DNA from: Alphaproteobacteria bacterium
GTDB lineage: Bacteria; Pseudomonadota; Alphaproteobacteria; MPNO01; UBA830
Direction of reading: 5' to 3'
DNA: 64,000 bases
Assembly: GCA_022822405.1 (NCBI GenBank)
Contig: JAJEBT010000066.1
Span: 25,464 to 89,463 of the forward strand
Positions 11,449 to 51,147 of this stretch are shown piece after piece (position 1 is the stretch's first letter; each line of letters opens with the position of its first letter). The translations under genes were made by a program, and so were the position numbers. The notes below the pieces were generated by a model that did not search any database, was not told the origin of the DNA, and saw only the letters and a program-made list of their open reading frames with translations.

Positions 11449-12485
11449 TGCTTGCGCTGTGCAAGATTGAAGAGGGGCTCGGCGGCGTTGCCGTCCGCTC
11501 CGTGGAGCCGCGGGATGCAGGCGCCGGTGAGATCCGCCTGAGTATCGGCGCTGCCGGAATCTGCGGGACGGACATGCAGATCTACAACTGGGCGCCCCGG
11601 ATGGCGCGCAGGATGAAGCTTCCGCGCGTGCTCGGCCATGAGGCCAGCGGCGTCGTCGACCAGGTCGGCGAGGGGGTCGACGACATCAAGGTCGGTGACC
11701 ATGTCAGTCTCGAGAGTCACATCTATTGCGGCGTGTGCCGGCCGTGCCGCCTCGGGCGCGCACACCTGTGCAACGCCACCACCTATCCCGGAATCGACAT
11801 CGACGGCGTCTTTGCCGACCACGTGACCGTTCCGGCGCGCATAGCGTGGCGGAATCCGCCGGACCTGCCCCATGAGGTCGCGGCCATGCTGGAGCCGTTC
11901 GGCATTGCCGTTCATGCCTGCCTGGAGGGTTCGGGCGTCGCCGGCCAGACGGTCCTCGTCAATGGCTGTGGACCGATCGGACTCATGGCCGTCGCTGCCG
12001 CGCGCGCGCTCGGCGCCGCCCGCGTGTTCGCTGCCGACCTGAACCCGCTGCGCCTCGCGACCGCCGAGGCGATGGGCGCCGACCGGGCGCTGAAGGCGGA
12101 CGAGACGGACGTCGTGGCTGCGGTGCGCGACATGACGTCGGGCGAGGGCGTGGATGTCGGAATCGAGTTCTCCGGTTCCGAGGCCGGCTTCCGGGCGGTA
12201 TTCGAGAGCCTGTGCAAGGGCGGCGACTTCCGTCTCGTCGGGGCGCCGCCCGCGGCGATCCCGGTGGATTTCACATGGTGGCTTCTCAAGTGCCCGCGCA
12301 TGATCAACATCCACGGCCGCCGCATTTGGGAGACCTGGCAGCAGGCGACTGAATTGATCCATGCGGGGGCTGTCGATCTCGGTCCCGTCCGAAGCCATGT
12401 GCTGCCGCTGTCGGAAGCCGCGGAAGGCTTCGAACTGATCCGCCGAGGCGAAGCCGTCAAACCGCTTCTCGTTCCGGGGGCGTAG
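11445..12485 (+). CDS. zinc-dependent alcohol dehydrogenase (threonine/sorbitol dehydrogenase-like MDR)
   Basis: The start overlaps the beta-subunit stop (GTGATG). Motifs are GHEASGVV, the structural zinc cluster CGVCRPCRLGRAHLC, and the Rossmann segment LVNGCGPIGL. Confidence 0.8.
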   Translation: MMLALCKIEEGLGGVAVRSVEPRDAGAGEIRLSIGAAGICGTDMQIYNWAPRMARRMKLPRVLGHEASGVVDQVGEGVDDIKVGDHVSLESHIYCGVCRPCRLGRAHLCNATTYPGIDIDGVFADHVTVPARIAWRNPPDLPHEVAAMLEPFGIAVHACLEGSGVAGQTVLVNGCGPIGLMAVAAARALGAARVFAADLNPLRLATAEAMGADRALKADETDVVAAVRDMTSGEGVDVGIEFSGSEAGFRAVFESLCKGGDFRLVGAPPAAIPVDFTWWLLKCPRMINIHGRRIWETWQQATELIHAGAVDLGPVRSHVLPLSEAAEGFELIRRGEAVKPLLVPGA

Positions 12486-12488
12486 GCC

Positions 12489-13508
12489 ATGGGTGCGCAC
12501 GAGGTGACGCTGGTCTTCGAGGACGGGCGGGTGGCGCGGTTCGAAGCCAACGAGAACGACAGCGTCTATCTTGCCGCCCTCAAGAACCGCGTGCGGATCC
12601 TCACCGACTGTCTAGAGGGTGCGTGCGCGACCTGCAAGGGCGTGTGCACGTCGGGGGACTACTATCTCGACGAATACGAGGACGAGGCGCTGTCGGCGGC
12701 CGAACGTGAACGGCGCGAGGTGCTCACCTGCCGGATGCATGTCACGTCCGACTGCGTCATCGAGTTCCCCTACGCATCGCGCATCGCGCTCAAGACGGCG
12801 CCGACAAGCATTCCGTGCAAGGTCGTAGAAGTCGACATGGTCGCGTCCGCAGTGGCTCGCCTCGTGATTGCGCAGGACGCGGAGAGCGCTCCGGTTTCGT
12901 TCATCCCCGGCCAGTATGTGCATCTTTCGGTTCCGGGAACGGACGCCCAGCGGTCCTATTCGTTCGCCAACAAGGTGGGGACGAATCGCCACGCCTTCTA
13001 CGTCAAGATTCTCGAACAGGGGGCGATGAGCGACTACATTTCAAAAAGGGCCGCGCCCGGGGACGAGATCACGATGACGGGCCCGTTCGGCCGGTTCTAT
13101 CTCCGCCCGCAGGAACGCCCGTCCGTGATGGTGGCAGGCGGAACCGGGCTTGCGCCAATGCTCAGCATGCTCGACACGCTTGTTTCGCCGGGGGAGGAAG
13201 GGGCGCCGGTGCGCCTGCTCTACGGCGCCAACAGGCCGGAGGAACTCTTTGCCCTCGACCAGCTGTCCGGCTATCGGGAAAAGGGTATCGATCTCGAGAT
13301 CGAGCTGTGTGTTGTCGAGACTTCGAGCGGCTGGACCGGCAGTTCAGGTCACATCACGTCGCTGCTGCGCGACGAGATACTGAACGGCGGCAACTGCGAG
13401 GTTTATCTCTGCGGTCCGCCGCCGATGATCGAGGCAGCGGAAGCGGCGTTGGCGGCCCGGTGCGTCGACCCGTCGCGGATTCACGCGGAGAAATTCGTAG
13501 CGAGCTGA
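12489..13508 (+). CDS. oxygenase electron-transfer component (plant-type 2Fe-2S ferredoxin fused to FAD/NAD(P)H reductase, BenC/XylZ-like)
   Basis: It has an N-terminal CLEGACATCKG...C cluster. This is followed by the FNR-type motifs RSYSFAN, MVAGGTGLAPM and YLCGPPPM. Confidence 0.85.
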   Translation: MGAHEVTLVFEDGRVARFEANENDSVYLAALKNRVRILTDCLEGACATCKGVCTSGDYYLDEYEDEALSAAERERREVLTCRMHVTSDCVIEFPYASRIALKTAPTSIPCKVVEVDMVASAVARLVIAQDAESAPVSFIPGQYVHLSVPGTDAQRSYSFANKVGTNRHAFYVKILEQGAMSDYISKRAAPGDEITMTGPFGRFYLRPQERPSVMVAGGTGLAPMLSMLDTLVSPGEEGAPVRLLYGANRPEELFALDQLSGYREKGIDLEIELCVVETSSGWTGSSGHITSLLRDEILNGGNCEVYLCGPPPMIEAAEAALAARCVDPSRIHAEKFVAS

Positions 13509-13616
13509 CAGCCGTCCGTGTGGTCGCGGATGCGCGCTGCTCGCGGTTGCCGTGTTGCGGGTGTCATGCTCTTGCTTGCGCTTCGAGCGTGAAGCAGTTT
13601 GACCATTCCCCGCACC

Positions 13617-14030
13617 ATGAAGAGGAATGGTGAAAGGCAAGCATTACGATTCGCAGTCTCGATGACTGAAAATGCTCTGTTGCGCGTACGCGCTGCCGAA
13701 CACAGATGCTCCATGAAAGAGGAAGTGCGGATCATCTTGCGCGACGCCGCAAGCGGCAGGACAGCGGGTCCTCGCGATCTGGCAAAGTTTACCCGTGAAT
13801 GCTTCGCGCTCTTTGGTGGTGTCGAGTTCGAACTTCCGCCACGCGGCTGTGGCAACATACACCACCAGCCATGGCCCGGCGGTGTCCAGACCGCGCAGGC
13901 CACGTTCTTCCTAAGATGGTCACGGTTCATAGGAATACGCGATCGTAGTATACTTGCAGGCCATCCCACATGTTGCCTGATGGATTCCAAGCCGTGTGAC
14001 CTGATGTTGTCGGCCTGGAACGAGGTTTGA
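13617..14030 (+). CDS. ribbon-helix-helix antitoxin-like protein (FitA/VapB type), orphan and possibly 3'-extended or degenerate
   Basis: LLRVRAAEHRCSMKEEVRIILRDAAS...DLAKFTRECFALFGGVEFELPPRG matches the usual pattern of FitA/VapB antitoxins up to ELPPR. The frame then runs on for about 60 unrelated codons into AT-rich DNA. No PIN toxin gene follows. Confidence 0.4.
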   Translation: MKRNGERQALRFAVSMTENALLRVRAAEHRCSMKEEVRIILRDAASGRTAGPRDLAKFTRECFALFGGVEFELPPRGCGNIHHQPWPGGVQTAQATFFLRWSRFIGIRDRSILAGHPTCCLMDSKPCDLMLSAWNEV

Positions 14031-14055
14031 ACCTTCCACGTTCAAAGGGAGAGTC

Positions 14056-15897
14056 ATGATGTTTGAGCTCATTCAACCTAACCTTCAAGACGTTCTTCGT
14101 GATGCGCAGATTGGGAAACTGCAACTTCCTGATTTTCAACGCGGGTGGGTATGGGAAGAAAACGCCATCGCAAGTCTCGTCGCTTCGGTCGCTCGGAGTT
14201 TCCCTGTCGGTGCACTTCTTTCCCTGAAGACCGGTGGCGCCATCCGTTTTCAGCCACGGATCATCGAGGGAGCCACAGAAAAAGGTACAACGCCGGATGA
14301 ACTTCTCCTTGATGGCCAACAGCGCGTGACGTCGCTCTTCCAAGCCTTCATGCGCGATGAGCCTGTAGATACGCGAACGGCGCAGGGGAAAAAAAGAAAG
14401 GTATTTTATTACTTCAACATTGAGCGCTCGTTGGAAGCTTCATTTCCCGAGGACGCCATCGAAATTGTGAATGAATCCAAAGTGGTCAGCAAGGATTTTG
14501 GCCGAAAATTTGTACGCGAATTGACGACCAGAGAGGCTGAGTATAAGAACATGCGCTATCCTGCAAACGCGGTGTTTGATTCTAGAGATTGGTTTAACGG
14601 TTGGATGGCGTACTACGAGTACGAACAGGAGAAAATAACCCTATTCCAGAAATTTGAAAAGGATGTACTTGTTCCAATCAGGAACTACATGTTGCCAATG
14701 ATACGACTGGAAGATGAAACCTCAAAAGAAGCGATCTGTCTCGTTTTTGAAAAGGTCAATACTGGTGGTAAGAAACTCGACGCATTTGAACTTTTGACTG
14801 CGATATTTGCGGCATCGAGTAAAGTTAATCTACGCACAGACTGGTATGGAGAGAAGGGAACGCTAGGACGTGAGGAGCGGCTACACAAATTTGATGTTCT
14901 CAAGGGAATTGATCGCACAGATTTCCTTCGGGCTATTTCTCTTGCCCATACATATGAAAATCGCCGCACTTCCGAAGCTGAAGGCAAGACGGGGAGAGAA
15001 CTGCCTACTGTCTCCTGCAATCATGCGGCCCTCCTCGATATTCCGGCAGATGCTTACGAACGGTGGCGCGGCGCGATCACAAAGGGGTTCGAGAATGCCG
15101 CCCGATTCCTACACGGTCACGGGGTGTTTTGGTGGAAGGATGTACCCTATCCGGCGCAGGCGACCGCACTCGCCGCATTCTTCGCGATACGTGAAAACCA
15201 GCCGCTTACCGCAGCCGAAAGGAGAATGATAGAGCGGTGGTTCTGGTGCGGCGTCTTCGGCGAGCTTTATGGTAGTTCGACCGACACTCGGCTTGCGAAT
15301 GATGTGGAAGATATGACTCGCTGGCTTGGCGGGAAGCAAAGCGAGCCACGCACGATCAGTTCGGCGATTTTCAGCGAATCACGGCTGGATACTCTCTACA
15401 CCCGCACCTCCGCAGCTTACAAGGGGGTCCACGCACTCCTCTTGAAGTACGGTGCTATGGATTTCTTGACGGGGGAACGAGTCGACGTGGCGAATTACTT
15501 CTCTGAAAGCTTCGATATTCATCACATCTTTCCACGCCATTGGTGCGGAAACCAAGAACCGTCCATTCCGCGTGCTCTATACAATAATATAGTCAACAAA
15601 ACTGCGATTTCATCGCGTACAAACCGAAAAATAGGAGGCCGTGCACCTTCGACATATTGTCAAAATCTGGATGAACATATGAGTGATAACGAAGTTTCGC
15701 TGGACGAAATCTTGAATAGCCATAAAATCGATCCCGAATTGCTGCGTTCCAACGCATTTCATGAATTCTACACCACACGAAAAACAGCGCTTCTCACCAT
15801 GATTGAGGAGGCTATGGGCAAAGCCGCACATCGTGATGGCGTTGGTAGTCTTGAGGACTATGACGAGCAACAAATGGATGAGTCGCGAGCGGCATAA
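14056..15897 (+). CDS. DUF262/DUF1524 nuclease (GmrSD/BrxU-type, putative type IV modification-dependent restriction enzyme)
   Basis: The N-terminal ParB-like DUF262 motifs are LQLPDFQRGWVWE and LLLDGQQRVTSL. The C-terminal His-Me finger/DUF1524-like motif is FDIHHIFPRHW...NNIVNKTAISSRTNRKIG. The SD-like sequence gggagag lies upstream of the ATG. Confidence 0.75.
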   Translation: MMFELIQPNLQDVLRDAQIGKLQLPDFQRGWVWEENAIASLVASVARSFPVGALLSLKTGGAIRFQPRIIEGATEKGTTPDELLLDGQQRVTSLFQAFMRDEPVDTRTAQGKKRKVFYYFNIERSLEASFPEDAIEIVNESKVVSKDFGRKFVRELTTREAEYKNMRYPANAVFDSRDWFNGWMAYYEYEQEKITLFQKFEKDVLVPIRNYMLPMIRLEDETSKEAICLVFEKVNTGGKKLDAFELLTAIFAASSKVNLRTDWYGEKGTLGREERLHKFDVLKGIDRTDFLRAISLAHTYENRRTSEAEGKTGRELPTVSCNHAALLDIPADAYERWRGAITKGFENAARFLHGHGVFWWKDVPYPAQATALAAFFAIRENQPLTAAERRMIERWFWCGVFGELYGSSTDTRLANDVEDMTRWLGGKQSEPRTISSAIFSESRLDTLYTRTSAAYKGVHALLLKYGAMDFLTGERVDVANYFSESFDIHHIFPRHWCGNQEPSIPRALYNNIVNKTAISSRTNRKIGGRAPSTYCQNLDEHMSDNEVSLDEILNSHKIDPELLRSNAFHEFYTTRKTALLTMIEEAMGKAAHRDGVGSLEDYDEQQMDESRAA

Positions 15898-16033
15898 CCG
15901 ATCGCGCCATGAGAATTGTTTAGGGGTTTATATCGTTGACTGCGCAAGTCGGGGAAGGGTTATCCGGGCGGATTGACGATTCGGGAGGCGAGGTTACATG
16001 GAGTGAAAGCCCGCCACGATAAGGATTACAGCC

Positions 16034-16261
16034 GTGTCTCAAGATTATCCTAATCCAGATTATCCCACACAGCCCGAACCGCTGGATCTCCCAAATCTAA
16101 AGGCTCAGCTGATATTATCACCGGATACTTACACTGGAACGAAGAGACTATCTCTACAGTTTTCGGTCCGCCTCCCTGGGTATTTGCCGCTGGGGCCGGA
16201 TTTTGAGAGTGGGGTTCCCTTGACCCTGAATCCGGAGGACACACAGCATCTTGCGAAGTAG
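16034..16261 (+). CDS. hypothetical small protein (75 aa)
   Basis: GTG start with AGGA 8 nt upstream. The product is proline-rich with no recognisable family. It ends about 50 nt before the shared hairpin. Coding status is uncertain. Confidence 0.25.
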   Translation: MSQDYPNPDYPTQPEPLDLPNLKAQLILSPDTYTGTKRLSLQFSVRLPGYLPLGPDFESGVPLTLNPEDTQHLAK

Positions 16262-16311
16262 CTGTGTGAGTCTTACTGCCAGTTCGGACAGGGTGCTTCG
16301 GACTCGGAATA

Positions 16312-16336
16312 GCGTTCGACATCAGGAGTCGAACGC
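16312..16336. terminator. perfect 9-bp hairpin between convergent small ORFs (possible bidirectional terminator)
   Basis: The stem is gcgttcgac (16312-16320), the loop atcagga, and the second arm gtcgaacgc (16328-16336). The loop contains the stop codon of the minus-strand ORF. There is no clear U-tract on either side. Confidence 0.35.
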
Positions 16337-16522
16337 CAACAGTGCGCCCAGGGCGTCAGGAGCGTCGGCAGTATCGGCGTCGGCCTCGATCTCCAACTCT
16401 GCAACCTCAGCGTCAGCTTCGGCATCGATTACTTCGGTGTCGGTGGCTATATCGGTGGGCACGGGCTTGGGCGGGGTTGCGGTATCGGCGGACTTGTCTT
16501 CCGCCACCTTCAATCGGAACAT
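16322..16522 (-). CDS. hypothetical very acidic small protein (66 aa)
   Basis: The ATG has GGAGA 8 nt upstream. The product MFRLKVAEDKSADTATPPKPVPTDIATDTEVIDAEADAEVAELEIEADADTADAPDALGALLAFDS has roughly 20 Asp/Glu against 4 Lys/Arg. G-start codons (GAC/GCC/GAG) dominate this frame. The opposite strand also holds an open Ser/Ala-rich frame, so this call is tentative. Confidence 0.35.
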   Translation of the reverse strand: MFRLKVAEDKSADTATPPKPVPTDIATDTEVIDAEADAEVAELEIEADADTADAPDALGALLAFDS

Positions 16523-16714
16523 GCGACCGATCTCCGTCTGGTTTGGACTTAGGATATATGCGATCCGCGCCAGATTATGCCGTGAAGCGTACAGCGACAG
16601 AAGGCAAGATCACTAGTGGACGACATTTGCGACTTGGGGTATAGTCGGTATGCACCCATCAGCTGCATATAATAACCTGCTCTCCTTTAGAAGGTAGAAA
16701 CGGATAAACAAACT

Positions 16715-18268
16715 ATGACACTACATCCCTCATCTGTTGAGTGGTCTATAGATTCAGTCGCGCAGCATTCTGATGGAGATCTATTTCCGAAGATCATAGA
16801 ATTCGAGGCAATTCGAGACCAACAAGTGCAACTTGTAAATCTTTTGTCTAATGCCGATTTATTTTCTTTTTCTCCCGGGCCTTCGCGGCGCTTCATCGTA
16901 CCGAAAGATGAGATATCATATCGACAGGCAACACAGCTCGATCCTCAAGATTCAATTATTTTGTCGGCTTTGTTGTATCAGTACGGGAAGGGTATCGAAG
17001 ATAGGAGGTTACCCAAGAATATTGTGTATAGTTATAGGTTTGGACCTACTGACGAGCATGGATTGTATGCCAGTCAATCTGCTTGGAACGACTTTTGGGA
17101 AAAAGCAAAGGAGCTGACTCATGAGGCAGGTGTAGTCCTATATTGCGATATAGCAGATTTCTATAATCAAATTTCTCATCACACTGTAGAAAATCAACTT
17201 ATTCAATCTGGATTTCCGAATCAGGCGATAAAGTGGATTATAGGTTTGCTCGCATCAACAACAGTCGGTGTCTCGAGGGGAGTACCTATTGGGCCTCATT
17301 CTATTCACCTTCTCGCCGAAGCTAGTTTAATTCCCGTTGACAACGCCCTTACGGCGGAAGGCTTTCGGTTTCTTCGATTTGCTGATGATATTTTGGTGTT
17401 TTGTCTAAATCAAGGGGCTGCAAAATTGGCCCTGGCAAGAATGGCTGACATTTTGGATAAACAACAGCGTCTAATGTTGCAGCGGCACAAAACGACTTTC
17501 ATGAGTCCTGCCGAGTGTCGCAAGTTGTGCAATAGAATGGTGGAGGATCGACCGATTAATTCGGATGAAAGAGATTTGTTGGCGCTAGTAAGAAAATATT
17601 CTGAAGGAAATCCATATAAGATGATTTCTTTTGAAGAAATAGAGCCAGGAGATTGGAAATTAATAAAAGAAGAAAGTATTTCTTTAATTATAAAAGAATA
17701 TTTAATTCAAAAAGATGTGGACTACATTAGGCTGAGATGGTTCTATCGGAGACTGTCACAAGTAGGACATCCAGGGGCTGTACGTGTTTCATTAGAACGA
17801 ATAGATGAACTTGGCCCATGCTTCGCAAATGTCTGTGCTTATTTAGCATCTGTACAAAATATTGAGCCGGAGGACTGGAAGGAAATAGGAAAATATCTAT
17901 TGGCTCTTTTGGATAGACAAGATGTCAGGGAGAATGAATTCTTTAGATTGTCGATTCTGAGTCTTTTTAGCAGGAACGCATACCTGAACCACTTTGAATC
18001 TCTGTCGTCTCTGTATAGTAGTAGCGATTCTAACGCGCGAAGGGAAATTTTACTGGCTGCATCGAGGAATGGAGTTGTGGATTGGGTCAGAGGATACAAA
18101 GAGTCGTTTGATGCAATGGATGTTTGGCAAAAGCGAGCGTACCTATATTGTAGTTCTCAGTTTCCAGCTGATGAAAGAAAGTTCTTTTTGCGGAGGCAGG
18201 CGCAGCAGCGCCCCTTTGAGGCGGCCCTAATCGGGTGGGCAAAGAAAGGATCGAGCAATAATCAGTAG
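16715..18268 (+). CDS. stand-alone reverse transcriptase, Abi/UG (defence-associated) type with C-terminal alpha-helical domain
   Basis: RT motifs are present in order: 1/2-like YRQATQLDPQDSIILSALLY; A VLYCDIADFYNQISHH (Asp codon at 17147); B SRGVPIGPHSIHLLAEASL; C LRFADDILVF (DD codons at 17384-17389). About 290 further residues are helix-rich and repetitive. There is no endonuclease, maturase-X or retron VTG motif. Confidence 0.8.
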   Translation: MTLHPSSVEWSIDSVAQHSDGDLFPKIIEFEAIRDQQVQLVNLLSNADLFSFSPGPSRRFIVPKDEISYRQATQLDPQDSIILSALLYQYGKGIEDRRLPKNIVYSYRFGPTDEHGLYASQSAWNDFWEKAKELTHEAGVVLYCDIADFYNQISHHTVENQLIQSGFPNQAIKWIIGLLASTTVGVSRGVPIGPHSIHLLAEASLIPVDNALTAEGFRFLRFADDILVFCLNQGAAKLALARMADILDKQQRLMLQRHKTTFMSPAECRKLCNRMVEDRPINSDERDLLALVRKYSEGNPYKMISFEEIEPGDWKLIKEESISLIIKEYLIQKDVDYIRLRWFYRRLSQVGHPGAVRVSLERIDELGPCFANVCAYLASVQNIEPEDWKEIGKYLLALLDRQDVRENEFFRLSILSLFSRNAYLNHFESLSSLYSSSDSNARREILLAASRNGVVDWVRGYKESFDAMDVWQKRAYLYCSSQFPADERKFFLRRQAQQRPFEAALIGWAKKGSSNNQ

Positions 18269-18554
18269 GCAATAACGGGTGGGGAGTGGTGACCTTGGTA
18301 TTCTGTCGCAGTTAAGACAGTATTAAACTCTAATTCCCCGGAGGAGGATTTTCGGGCGACCCGACTCGCTCACCATGTGCAACGTTTGACCCGGACACTT
18401 CCTGTGATGCGGGGTTGCCGCTAACACTTGGGCTACCTCATTCATAAGGTGTGAGGTGGCTCTGCATAGCGTATCGGCAACGCACTGCCCGCCAGTGATC
18501 AGCATGTCGCGCCTGTGTCTTCTGCTCGGCCATCGTCTGCAGATTCCGGCGCAC

Positions 18555-19880
18555 TTAACAGCAGGCACAACGCTCCTGCATCTCGACCGGCACGTCGAGC
18601 GTGTCGCCATGCGCCATCGTCTTGTAGGGTCCGGCCCCGTCCGCGTCGGCCGACGCCCCCCAGCCGCCGTGTCCGGTGTCGAGGTGTTGGTAGAGTTCGT
18701 CCGTTGCCGGATCGGTGCCGTAGAACCAGTGGGCTGAAAACGAGGCGTGGTGACCGGCTGCCGCCGCGGCAGGCACCGCCTCGCCGACTGCACGCAACAC
18801 GGTGTCGATCATCGTCGGCAGGGTCGCGCTGTAGAGGCCCATCGGCGCGGTCGGCCCGGCGCTAAGGAACGTGCCGTCCGGAATAATGATGTTGAGCGGG
18901 CGGATTCTTCGTCAAGTGTCATCGGATTTTGCATCCGGTGAGGTCAGGGTCTTGAAGGCGATGCGGGCCGACGGATAAGCACCTCCGTGGACGCCGGAAT
19001 TGAGCGGATCCCAGAGCACGCCGCCGAGGCCGGACAAGTCGATGGTCATCGAGTCGCCCTCGATCCGCACCTCGACATCGACGGGAACCGGGCAATCGTT
19101 GTCAACGCCGTCATTGTCGAGACGGGTGGAGGCCCGCCATACACCATCAGGGAGCGCCTCGACGGCGGCGCGCGCGACCGCTTCGGACTGGTCCCAGATG
19201 GCGCCGATCGCCGCGCGCAGCGTGACGGCGCCGTGGCGGTCGATCCGGGCGTGGATCTTGTCGCGGCCGGCCAGGGTGCCGGCAAGCTGGGCATCAAGGT
19301 CGCCGAGCACCATGGTGGGGAACCGAGTGTTGTATTCGATGATCCGGTAGATCTACTCGTTGCGCATGCCACGCTGCTAGAGCTTCACGGTTCGGTACTG
19401 GATTCCTTTCTGGGAGATCTCGGTTGCATCGGATGCGCTTCACGAACCGACAGAACTGCCTCCGACATCGATCCAGTGGATCAGGATGCGCATGAAGCCG
19501 AACAGGTCGTCCTCGCCGGCGCCGGTGAAGACCGGCGTGTACGTGACGAGGTTGTTGAGGTGCTGGCCGAGGGTGCCGGCATGGTTGGAGATGATCACGT
19601 CTCCGTCGTGGATATTGTCGCGGCCGTAGACTTCCAGCCCGTCGCGTACGGCATTGCCCAGCGCGTTGGCGATGAAGATCGGGATCGAGCCGCTGCCTTG
19701 GGCAACCAGGCGGCCTTCCGGGTCGACCAGCCCGGTGGCGAAGTCCTTGTATTCGTAGACCAGCGGGCTGAACGCGGTGCGGGTGATGTTGGCGTCGATT
19801 TCATCGGGAATGGCGACCAGACCGTGACGGATGATTTCCAGGGTGATCGGATCGATGGTCGCCGGTTTCCGCATGTCCAT
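18555..19880 (-). pseudogene. hydantoinase B/oxoprolinase (hyuB-like), fragmented
   Basis: Three colinear pieces lie in different frames. They are 19440..19880 (MDMRKPATIDPITLEIIRHGL...), 18912..19313 (...DGVWRASTRLDNDG...VEVRIEGDSMTIDLSG...) and 18555..18842 (...YQHLDTGHGGWGA...GDTLDVPVEMQE). In-frame stops occur between the pieces, and the 3' end is ill defined. Confidence 0.75.
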
Positions 19881-19882
19881 GT

Positions 19883-21126
19883 TCAGCCTCCAACCGTGAT
19901 CCGGATTTCCCCGAGTTCGCCGATGGCGCACCTCTCTCCCGGGCCGACGACGGTGGTTGCGCCGTATTCCTCGACAATCAACGGACCGTCGGCGGCGTAC
20001 CCCGCGGCCAGGGCGCTGCGGCGGTGGACCGGAGTCTCGATCCACCCGCCACCGCGGCCGAAGGCGACCGGGCCGGGATCCGATCCGGCGCTTCGCGGTC
20101 CCACTCGAAGCCGGCCGGCGCCATCGATCCAGGCGATCGAACCGCCGCCGGCGCCGACCTCGACGATATCAACGACGGATCCGCGAATCGGAAAGCCAGT
20201 CGCGTAGCCGCCGACGTAATAGGGCGAGTGGAGCGCGTATCGCCCGTCGCGGATGACAGCGTACTTGGCTGTGGTTCCACCCATGTCGAAGGCGATCAGG
20301 TCGGGTAATTCAAGGGCTTCGGAGAACGCTCCGGCGCCGATGCAGCCGCCCACCGGCCCGGATTCGATTAGCGTGATCGGTTCCCGCAGCGTGCGCTCGA
20401 CCGATAACACGCCGCCGTTCGAGCCCATCATGAAGAGCGTCCTGTCGAACCCGGCCTCGCCGAGCCGGTCTTCGAGCCGGCTGACATAGGCGGCCATGCG
20501 CGGGCCGACGACCGCATTGGCCGCGACGGTGCAGCAGCGCTCGTACTCGTACCACTCGCGCGTCAGCTCGCTGCCTGCGGTCACGTAGATTCCCGGCAGC
20601 CGGTCGCGCAGGAGTCTGGCGATCATGGTCTCGTGGCGGTCGTCGAGATAGCTGTTCAGAAGCGAGACGGCGACCGCCTCGACCCCGAGTTCCGCGAGGT
20701 GCCGGGCAAGGCGTTCGACTTCGCCGGAATCGGGTGCCGCCAGCACCTCGCCGCGGCCATGGATCCGCTCGTCGATCTCGAAACGCAACGGCCGCGGGAT
20801 CAGCGGCGGTAGTCGATGCGAAAGGGGTTGGTCCGGTTGCCGCGGGCGAGTTCCAGCGTATCGCGGAAGCCCTTGGTCGTCACCAGTGCTGCCTTGGCGC
20901 CACTCCGCTGCAGGAGCGTATTGATGACGAGTGTAGTACCGTGCTTGGCGAGGACGGCCTTGCCGAGATCGATCCCGGCCTCGGAGGCGCATGCCATCAC
21001 GCCATCGACCAGATCGTTGTAGGCAGTCAGCGCCTTGGCGCAGGAAACCGTTCCGGTGTCGAGATCATAGGCGGCGATGTCGGTAAAAGTGTCGCCCGTA
21101 TCGAAGGCCACGATCAGCGACATCAA
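19883..21126 (-). pseudogene. hydantoinase A/oxoprolinase (hyuA-like), frameshifted and internally deleted
   Basis: The N-terminal piece 20800..21126 (MMSLIVAFDTGDTFTDIAAY...) is out of frame with 19883..20992 (...FDMGGTTAKYAVI...GPLIVEEYGATTVVGPG...). The total is about 414 codons, against the roughly 680 usual for HyuA as I recall. Confidence 0.7.
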
Positions 21127-50589: not shown

Positions 50590-50950
50590 CCGGACCTAGC
50601 CAAGCGCGTCGGCAGGTCCACAGCCCGGGTGGCATCGGACTGTCCGCTTCCAGAGGCCTGTCAGGTCGTGGAGGTCGGGGGCTTCTGTTGCCCGGTGCCC
50701 CCGGGACCGCGCTTTCCTAGATCTAGGCAGCGAGGGCCAATTCGTTGTCATTGGCATTTGTAAAGGCGGCCCGCTAACGGCGGTACCATACCGGGCGAAA
50801 AGCAAGTCTTTAGACGCGTGTCGATCCTGTTTCGCCCCCGTCGGAACATCTGCGGCCGTTCCCGCAGGATGCGTTGGTGGAGGCGCCGGGTACTGCCCCC
50901 GGGTCCACGGCGCTTATTGCACAAACCGTTTATCGCCATAGTCGGCAAGC
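50590..50950 (-). ncRNA. ssrA: two-piece (circularly permuted) tmRNA gene
   Basis: Read on the minus strand. The acceptor piece ends ...CCGGG-GGCAGTA-CCCGG-CGCCTCC-ACCA (CCA at 50877-50875). A 35-nt spacer follows. The coding piece then starts GGGGGCGAAACAGGATCGAC (G1 at 50839). GGGGGCG pairs with CGCCTCC, including a G3:U pair. The tag frame GCC AAT GAC AAC GAA TTG GCC CTC GCT GCC TAG (50755-50723) reads ANDNELALAA*. The outer ends are approximate, and the T-loop is non-canonical. Confidence 0.8.
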
Positions 50951-51147
50951 CGACAAGACAAATATGGCGTATGCAACCGGGACAGTAAAGCCCGTTCCGC
51001 ACAAATTTTGGCCGGACCGCACCAGGCACCGGGGGAGTCTTGCAGGGTAGCGTCCGACACCGATTGACCGGAAAGGCTGGCGACATAATCTGGATCATGC
51101 CGGATGGCCAGGATCCGGCGAATGTCGGTTCGGTGGAGCGAGGGAAA

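Follow-up and report, generated by a model that had tools for sequence, protein, structure and literature searches.

An AT-rich insert with two intact genes

We analyzed a stretch of 64,000 nucleotides (nt) from an alphaproteobacterium (contig JAJEBT010000066.1 of assembly GCA_022822405.1, positions 25,464 to 89,463 of the forward strand), which is called the window hereafter. An AT-rich insert of 4.7 kb, located at about 13.85 to 18.56 kb, carries two intact and co-oriented genes (Table 1). The upstream gene encodes a predicted nuclease of the BrxU/GmrSD family of type IV restriction enzymes, and the downstream one a reverse transcriptase (RT) of the UG7 group, the one to which DRT8 belongs. 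Both genes belong to families that are already known. A preliminary description of this DNA had presented them as a pairing, which is not supported, since no conserved co-occurrence of the two families was found.

Outside the island, the 1-kb windows averaged 0.659 ± 0.024 in G+C content (GC), the lowest one being at 0.612. Within it, the mean was 0.48 and the lowest 1-kb window reached 0.404 (z of about −7.5). All the 1-kb windows with a GC below 0.58 fell in one segment, which is the sole low-GC stretch of the 64 kb. In the sliding profile, the flanks ranged from 0.62 to 0.72 and the trough extended from ~13.6 to ~18.4 kb, going down to 0.36. This trough confirmed the AT-rich foreign island of the preliminary description, whose counts for single lines (18/60 at 17581 against 48/60 at 12001) were exact. 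The limits proposed there (13900-18330) correspond to a real island that is slightly larger, because the segment carrying the RT gene extends to 18448 and the similarity to hyuB resumes at ~18558. The composition was not the same for all parts of the insert: GC was 0.497 in the nuclease gene, 0.539 in the spacer, and 0.423 in the RT gene, where the GC of third codon positions (GC3) was 0.38. The two large open reading frames (ORFs) were intact at the positions first reported, and the gap between them was counted as 817 bp instead of 818.

The window belongs to a metagenome scaffold of 198 kb. The island lies between a dioxygenase operon and hyuAB-parC, and the same gene arrangement recurs in several sister samples. 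No tRNA gene was found near it, none of its sizeable ORFs matched a mobility family, and the flanking or att repeats were short and at chance level, in agreement with the earlier statement that neither mobility genes nor att repeats are visible.

Table 1. Features of the insert and of its borders, in window coordinates
Feature	Position	Strand	Evidence
FitA-like ribbon-helix-helix antitoxin	13617..13850	+	Pfam FitA-like_RHH, E = 2.5e-7, on ORF 13599-14030
Promoter-like site 5' of the nuclease gene	13926..13954	+	Consensus scan, 9/12 matches, weak
BrxU/GmrSD-family type IV restriction-like nuclease gene	14056..15897	+	Intact ORF, 613 amino acids (aa)
DGQQR motif for nucleoside triphosphate (NTP) binding, DUF262 domain, aa 86-90	14311..14325	+	Invariant in family alignment
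DIHHIFP His-Me finger motif, aa 487-493	15514..15534	+	Aligns with BrxU VDHIYP
Spacer, decayed part of an unrelated third module	15898..16668	-	blastn against contig L209
Promoter-like site for the RT gene	16617..16645	+	Consensus scan, weak; just 5' of the conserved cassette
RT cassette common to contig L001 (46-nt leader, RT ORF, 180-nt 3' tail)	16669..18448	+	blastn
Stand-alone UG7 (DRT8-family) Class 1 UG/Abi RT gene, 517 aa	16715..18268	+	Intact ORF; PADLOC Drt8, Pfam RVT_1
Catalytic motif C, F-A-D-D, aa 222-225	17381..17392	+	DD = 17384-17389
Stretch of ~109 nt of no assigned origin	18449..18557		Resembles neither the L001 RT cassette nor sister genome L208
Decayed hyuB and hyuA, host side	18558..21123	-	tblastn with intact HyuA and HyuB of L208; gene calls

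A BrxU-like nuclease and a stand-alone UG7 reverse transcriptase

The gene caller placed the start of the nuclease gene at 14059, which is likely its true start and gives a protein of 612 aa. Its N-terminal part (aa 11-251) matched the Pfam family PF03235, GmrSD_N or DUF262 (E = 3.7e−28; 99.5 bits for a cutoff of 33.2). The residue preceding the DGQQR motif is a leucine (LDGQQR, aa 85-90) and not an isoleucine or a valine. The His-Me finger motif is followed by NNIVNKT and RTNRKIGG, with invariant N/K/N residues at 15583-15639. An alignment of 24 sequences of 44 to 72% identity revealed that the invariant residues included those of DGQQR, I/H/H/F/P of the His-Me motif, and N513, K514, and N522, which are numbered here from 14059, i.e., one below the numbering of the window.

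The profile of the family matched BrxU of Escherichia fergusonii plasmid pEFER (PDB 7P9K) at both ends (E = 3e−8), and positions 483 to 587 of the profile aligned with residues 467 to 579 of BrxU, across the His-Me motif. The AlphaFold (AF2) model of the protein had a predicted local distance difference test score (pLDDT) of 87.3. When compared with known structures using Foldseek, it gave BrxU as by far the best match, over the full length (E = 6.6e−15), followed by the C-terminal domain of SspE (E = 2.8e−3). The C-terminal nuclease is a predicted one, supported by the motif, the profile match to BrxU, and the fold matches. Since the enzymes of the GmrSD/BrxU family are defined by (I/V)DGQQR and DHIYP motifs (PMC10952713), for which the window protein has LDGQQR and DIHHIFP, its sequence and its modeled fold give it the architecture of BrxU/GmrSD, the His-Me motif being a variant one. 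As in BrxU, a single chain of ~600 aa bears an N-terminal DUF262 domain with DGQQR, and a C-terminal His-Me region is predicted. The two proteins are only ~16% identical, the window protein differs by its HHIFP motif and by the lack of a Pfam match to DUF1524, and the 64-kb window contains no BREX locus. Accordingly, the initial label of DUF262/DUF1524 nuclease held for GmrSD_N by Pfam and for the BrxU type by profile and fold, and did not hold for DUF1524 in the Pfam search. The top PADLOC matches were to DUF262-containing candidate families (PDC-M55C and HEC-05), none of them to a named GmrSD or BrxU model.

Relatives of this nuclease occur inside restriction-modification loci and a BREX island. 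Those with ~45% identity were often found within restriction-modification loci, including type III-like Res with an N6_N4 methylase, type I HsdS, type ISP, and SNF2-Mrr, and ~20 full-length relatives were found on viral or prophage contigs. The restriction-modification, PARIS-like, and viral contexts fit a self-contained role in type IV restriction. The PARIS-like context is that of a 71%-identical DUF262 homologue on contig L166 (3837-7866), which lies directly 3' of an AAA_15/AAA_21 ATPase and a DUF4276 gene. The same element additionally bears ParA, an integrase, and a transposase.

The RT matched the PADLOC model Drt8 over almost all its length (aa 4-511 on positions 3-491 of the 493 in the model; E = 3.7e−155; 516 bits), and the runner-up model was RT_UG21 (4.3e−37). 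This agrees with the earlier view of a stand-alone defense-type RT, and the two catalytic aspartates were found exactly where they had been located. At position 222 of the motif, 40 of the 57 members of the family have a tyrosine and the other 17 a phenylalanine, while D224 and D225 are invariant. The RT keeps every residue that is invariant in the family alignment. Its core (~aa 50-270) is followed by a helical-repeat domain (~aa 283-511), which is all-helical in the AlphaFold model (pLDDT of 90.2). Foldseek gave as best full-length PDB matches DRT6 (template modeling score [TM-score] of 0.62 to 0.64), DRT4/UG15, Abi-P2, AbiK, and AbiA. These fold matches are to Class 1 UG/Abi enzymes. The RT gene is under purifying selection, with a ratio of nonsynonymous to synonymous substitution rates (dN/dS) of about 0.18 relative to its 90%-identical relative in L001.

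DRT types 6 to 9 correspond to UG12, UG10, UG7, and UG28, respectively (PMC9226505). UG29, a primase-RT-nitrilase protein of ~2,500 aa, is not DRT8. UG7 comprises two variants that are congruent with the phylogeny: in the one, 150 members are tied to a gene of “cluster 17” encoding a PD-(D/E)XK-like nuclease, and in the other, 165 members have no associated gene (PMC9226505). The DRT8 system that was tested protected against T5 and required the active sites of both the RT and the PD-(D/E)XK nuclease (PMC9226505). A review from 2026 still gives the mechanism of DRT8 as not established (PMC13213688).

The window RT resembles the tested DRT8 by its full-length UG7/Drt8 match, its Class 1 architecture of RT and helical repeat, and its intact (Y/F)ADD motif. 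It differs from it by the lack of an adjacent “cluster 17” nuclease: no ORF for a PD-(D/E)XK effector adjoins the RT gene, since the ORFs of the spacer match nothing and the downstream DNA is the hyuB remnant. Because the RT has the features of UG7 and lacks this partner, we filed it under the stand-alone variant of the UG7/DRT8 family rather than under full DRT8 systems. The other systems close to it are DRT6 (UG12; 9wy8), DRT4 (9vdo; UG15, 9l9s), and AbiK (7z0z), which it resembles by fold and as a single gene of ~500 to 600 aa without a noncoding RNA (ncRNA). The window RT is only 13 to 15% identical to them and belongs to another UG group. DRT4, DRT6, and AbiK carry out protein-primed, template-independent synthesis of DNA (PMC12783706). 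Protein priming, template independence, the oligomeric state, and the trigger (e.g., ORF55 of T5) are features of these enzymes, which might extend to UG7 by analogy.

Neighbors without conserved association

We searched for co-occurrence of the two families from both sides. The loci were picked by peptide patterns among the matches listed, at most 80 per scan, and many of the metagenome contigs had short flanks (median of 2.4 to 3.4 kb). The ORFs of the RT loci were searched with the DUF262 protein of the window and with profiles of the N-terminal domain and of the full-length family. None of the 84 RT loci had an adjacent DUF262 gene, and only one (L049) had a relative of it within ~8 kb. 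The three closest homologues of the RT (90, 75, and 74% identity) have as neighbors a DEAD/ResIII helicase, PIN toxin-antitoxin pairs, and P4-like integrases, without DUF262. Another 80 RT loci came from species-representative genomes of Proteobacteria, Firmicutes, Cyanobacteria, Chloroflexi, Verrucomicrobia, and Planctomycetes, and of a Methanoperedens archaeon. The locus with the distant DUF262 gene, in a metagenome-assembled genome of Caldisericota (L049, 3053-16799), is a BREX-type island consisting of PglZ-BrxL, the RT, an ORF of 152 aa, a DEAD/ResIII helicase, DUF262, and an HSDR_N-like gene. Two genes thus separate the RT from DUF262, which occupies a BrxU-like position.

When the neighbors were clustered and the closest sizeable ORF on each side (57 upstream and 49 downstream) was assigned to Pfam families, the neighborhoods proved heterogeneous and showed no recurrent partner of the RT, with the exception of an alanyl-tRNA synthetase in five cyanobacterial loci and of scattered defense genes, and no PD-(D/E)XK partner was found in the 84 sampled relatives. 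The copy of the RT in a Rhizobium megaplasmid and four copies in Escherichia coli chromosomes also lacked a DUF262 gene. From the other side, a UG7 RT was found in none of the 116 loci of DUF262 (80 from metagenomes, 34 viral, and 2 of the nearest homologues). Counting the neighbors of RT homologues had been proposed as a check of the pairing, and on the computational side it gave no conserved co-occurrence with DUF262. The lack of such co-occurrence in either direction favors, at the level of gene neighborhoods, two stacked systems over a single one, a choice that the preliminary description had left open.

The closest relative of the RT, in contig L001, shares only the cassette of the RT and neither the spacer nor the nuclease gene. 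The similarity was 90.7% over 1,780 nt and collapsed past 18448. Because it is confined to 16669-18448, we infer that the RT moves as its own cassette of 1.78 kb, without the nuclease gene or the spacer. A TATAAT-like box, the 5' untranslated region, and the ribosome-binding site, at ~16655-16714, are conserved with L001.

We rejected the possibility that the spacer belongs to the unit of either gene, because it did not resemble the DNA flanking the nearest relatives of the RT or of DUF262 and matched no plasmid. Its single called ORF, searched exhaustively, had one true relative, P0248 (60% identical), which is encoded on L209, a metagenome contig of 2.1 kb. On the minus strand of the spacer, a small acidic ORF of 66 aa with its leader (16585-16328) matched positions 485 to 739 of this contig (77.5% over 267 nt). 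A second segment (15990-15920, minus strand) was 78% identical over 73 nt to the 5' end, ~25 codons, of a 213-aa gene of L209 without a known family, and this gene fragment is interrupted where the nuclease gene ends (3'). Both segments are collinear with L209 (485-1365), with deletions. The spacer matched nothing in Pfam, PADLOC, or Rfam, and the genes of L209 nothing in Pfam or PADLOC. The latter genes were absent from the ~200 other loci and from the vicinity of either of the two genes, so that this module is otherwise seen on that one contig only. Since the spacer is collinear with L209, whose genes are without family and do not recur elsewhere, its sequence identifies it as the wreckage of a third, unrelated module and not as an ncRNA.

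An ncRNA in the spacer or in the 3' tail of the RT gene was rejected, since the search of Rfam, the conservation among relatives, and the folding compared with shuffled sequence all gave negative results. This bears on the possibility that the RT is that of an RNA-dependent retroelement (a retron, a group II intron, or a DRT2/3/9-type system) with its RNA partner in one of these two places. The long spacer upstream, the conserved 3' tail of 180 nt, and a weak similarity of the RT core to the RTs of group II introns and retrons would be in line with it. Nevertheless, we consider this extremely improbable: no Rfam family was found at E ≤ 1 across 13000-19500, the upstream DNA is not conserved beyond ~46 to 75 nt before the ATG even in the 90%-identical relative, and the predicted fold of the 3' tail does not stand out from those of shuffled sequences (z = −0.13). 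Moreover, the C-terminal helical repeat is that of Class 1 UG/Abi enzymes, not the architecture of maturases or retrons, and the E value of Drt8 is over 100 orders of magnitude lower than that of the next PADLOC match.

We consider it likely that the insert is a small defense island of independently acquired modules at a variable chromosomal site, where the two genes would provide two parallel, layered defenses. The two modules are regarded as separate because their families do not co-occur, the RT has its own cassette, the GC of the genes differs, each has its own promoter-like site, and the spacer is a remnant. The nuclease and the RT would owe their proximity to chance in the assembly of the island. 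Transcription of each gene would start at its own promoter, and their products would act independently. By analogy with BrxU and Eco94GmrSD, the N-terminal DUF262 domain of the nuclease (ParB/Srx-like, with DGQQR) would bind and hydrolyze NTP, thereby gating the C-terminal His-Me nuclease, which would cut incoming DNA with modified cytosines, absent from the DNA of the host. The RT, by analogy with DRT6, DRT4, and AbiK, is most probably an oligomer making protein-primed, template-independent single-stranded DNA. This product would become toxic or interfering only once a phage factor stabilizes it, leading to abortive infection.

Several points weigh against this interpretation. The sole DRT8 that was tested required an adjacent PD-(D/E)XK nuclease, and none adjoins the RT of the window. 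On the side of the nuclease, neither DUF1524 nor any second Pfam family matched at E ≤ 0.01, the His-Me motif is HHIFP where the canonical one is DHIYP, and the global TM-score to BrxU was just 0.37 to 0.39 despite the full-length alignment. The promoter calls for both genes are weak consensus matches. Finally, loci that were picked by patterns and have short flanks leave room for a rare or lineage-specific association of the two families.

Such an association would be expected if the two genes formed a single system, in which the BrxU-like nuclease would replace the PD-(D/E)XK effector and be activated by the DNA product of the RT. The need of the tested DRT8 for a nuclease effector is in favor of this, as are the suggestion by Mestre et al. 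(2022) that stand-alone UG7 RTs might rely on nucleases acting in trans (PMC9226505), the co-orientation of the two neighboring genes, and the presence of both families within 8 kb in L049. We give it very little credence, given the adjacency in 0 of the 84 RT loci, the absence of UG7 RTs from the 116 DUF262 loci, and the other neighbors that the nearest relatives of each gene have. Within the island, the 817 bp between the genes hold opposite-strand wreckage of another module, GC differs, and the promoter-like sites are separate; L001 has the RT cassette without the nuclease, and BrxU-family enzymes are self-contained (PMC10952713). A looser possibility, also very doubtful for this locus, is that stand-alone UG7 RTs recruit in trans whichever nuclease is co-resident, here the adjacent BrxU-like enzyme; a milder version of it is that this unusually conserved clade is a self-sufficient DNA-synthesizing immune enzyme of the DRT4/DRT6 kind. 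If recruitment took place, the window would hold a facultative, nonconserved partnership between an RT and a nuclease.

It is also unlikely that one or both genes are inert cargo, i.e., decaying relics that no longer defend the cell. Decay is present all around them (the orphan antitoxin, the remnant in the spacer, and the fragmented hyuAB), no mobility genes remain, and the stand-alone variant of UG7 was never shown to defend (PMC9226505; PMC13213688). Against this, both ORFs are full length and keep all the family-invariant residues and the catalytic motifs, the dN/dS of the RT is low (about 0.18), and the identical arrangement is retained in several samples. In addition, the strongly un-ameliorated GC (GC3 of 0.38 for the RT in a genome with 65% GC) argues for a recent acquisition. 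The layered defense by two independent modules remains our preferred interpretation, and the locus illustrates that two defense genes are not a system just by being neighbors in an AT-rich island.

The insertion site and the wider UG7 clade

The left border of the foreign DNA is approximate. We place it at ~13.6 to 13.95 kb, at the FitA-like antitoxin, where GC begins to fall. The reading frame of this antitoxin is abnormally prolonged to 14030, ~55 codons beyond the usual end, and the cognate PIN toxin is missing downstream, as implied by the orphan antitoxin of the preliminary description. Because the frame overruns and the toxin is missing, the PIN toxin gene was probably lost during the insertion or the remodeling of the island. 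An alignment of the antitoxin with a FitA-like homologue, meant to fix the left junction, was not obtained. Contig L171, which ends exactly at 13850, was considered as an empty-site allele marking this junction and was rejected, because another contig of the same sample (L212) joins the hyuB remnant to the RT.

On the right side, the junction lies within the ~109 nt of no assigned origin listed in Table 1. Beyond it, hyuB breaks off after codon 437 (of the 586 in the intact gene), at ~18558, and is also fragmented, and hyuA has an internal deletion of ~260 codons (about aa 363-621 are gone), which matches the decayed hyuAB operon first described there. In the sister genome L208, whose ParC is at least 90% identical, parC is followed by an intact hyuA (683 aa), an intact hyuB (586 aa), and a cargo consisting of DUF6088 and AbiEii, DUF433, a PhdYeFM antitoxin, and an AAA_14 ATPase (L208, 12319-22229). 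Since L208 bears different cargo after an intact hyuAB, the site beyond hyuB is a variable hotspot of defense and toxin-antitoxin genes in this lineage. The truncation of hyuB and the antitoxin without its toxin would be traces left there by insertion and deletion.

In the family as a whole, the genes for the RT have a lower GC than the DNA around them, with a median of 0.39 against 0.51 (74 loci). About half of the DRT8-named group consists of the stand-alone variant, which is extremely conserved and has been transferred very widely; the window provides a clean, intact, and natively promoted example of it, of 1.78 kb. The stand-alone clade (L005 to L084) has 57 to 62% identity across Proteobacteria, Firmicutes, Cyanobacteria, Verrucomicrobia, Acidobacteria, and one archaeon, and includes RTs of Candidatus Methanoperedens (L022), Paenibacillus (L016), and Richelia (L013). 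More than 100 residues are invariant over both domains, which is unusual conservation for a defense gene.

In heterocyst-forming cyanobacteria of the genera Nostoc, Fischerella, Fortiea, and Hassallia (L053, L054, L055, L058, and L081), the RT gene lies 140 to 166 bp 3' of the gene for alanyl-tRNA synthetase, a linkage that points to retention by vertical descent or to insertion at a fixed site. This RT lineage was found in 4 of 5,426 complete genomes of E. coli, in a P4-like element integrated at tRNA-Sec. In the chromosome of strain YZ22PE67 (L210, 50270-67823), the element carries an integrase, a WYL-domain protein, the RT, ash, a RepA helicase, and a primase, and the effector gene of retron St85 is found near it.

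Elsewhere in the window, an alphaproteobacterial host is suggested by the gene order era-rnc-lepB / acpS-pdxJ / spoT, in combination with the GC of 65% and a permuted, two-piece gene for transfer-messenger RNA (50632-50970, minus strand) with the tag peptide ANDNELALAA.

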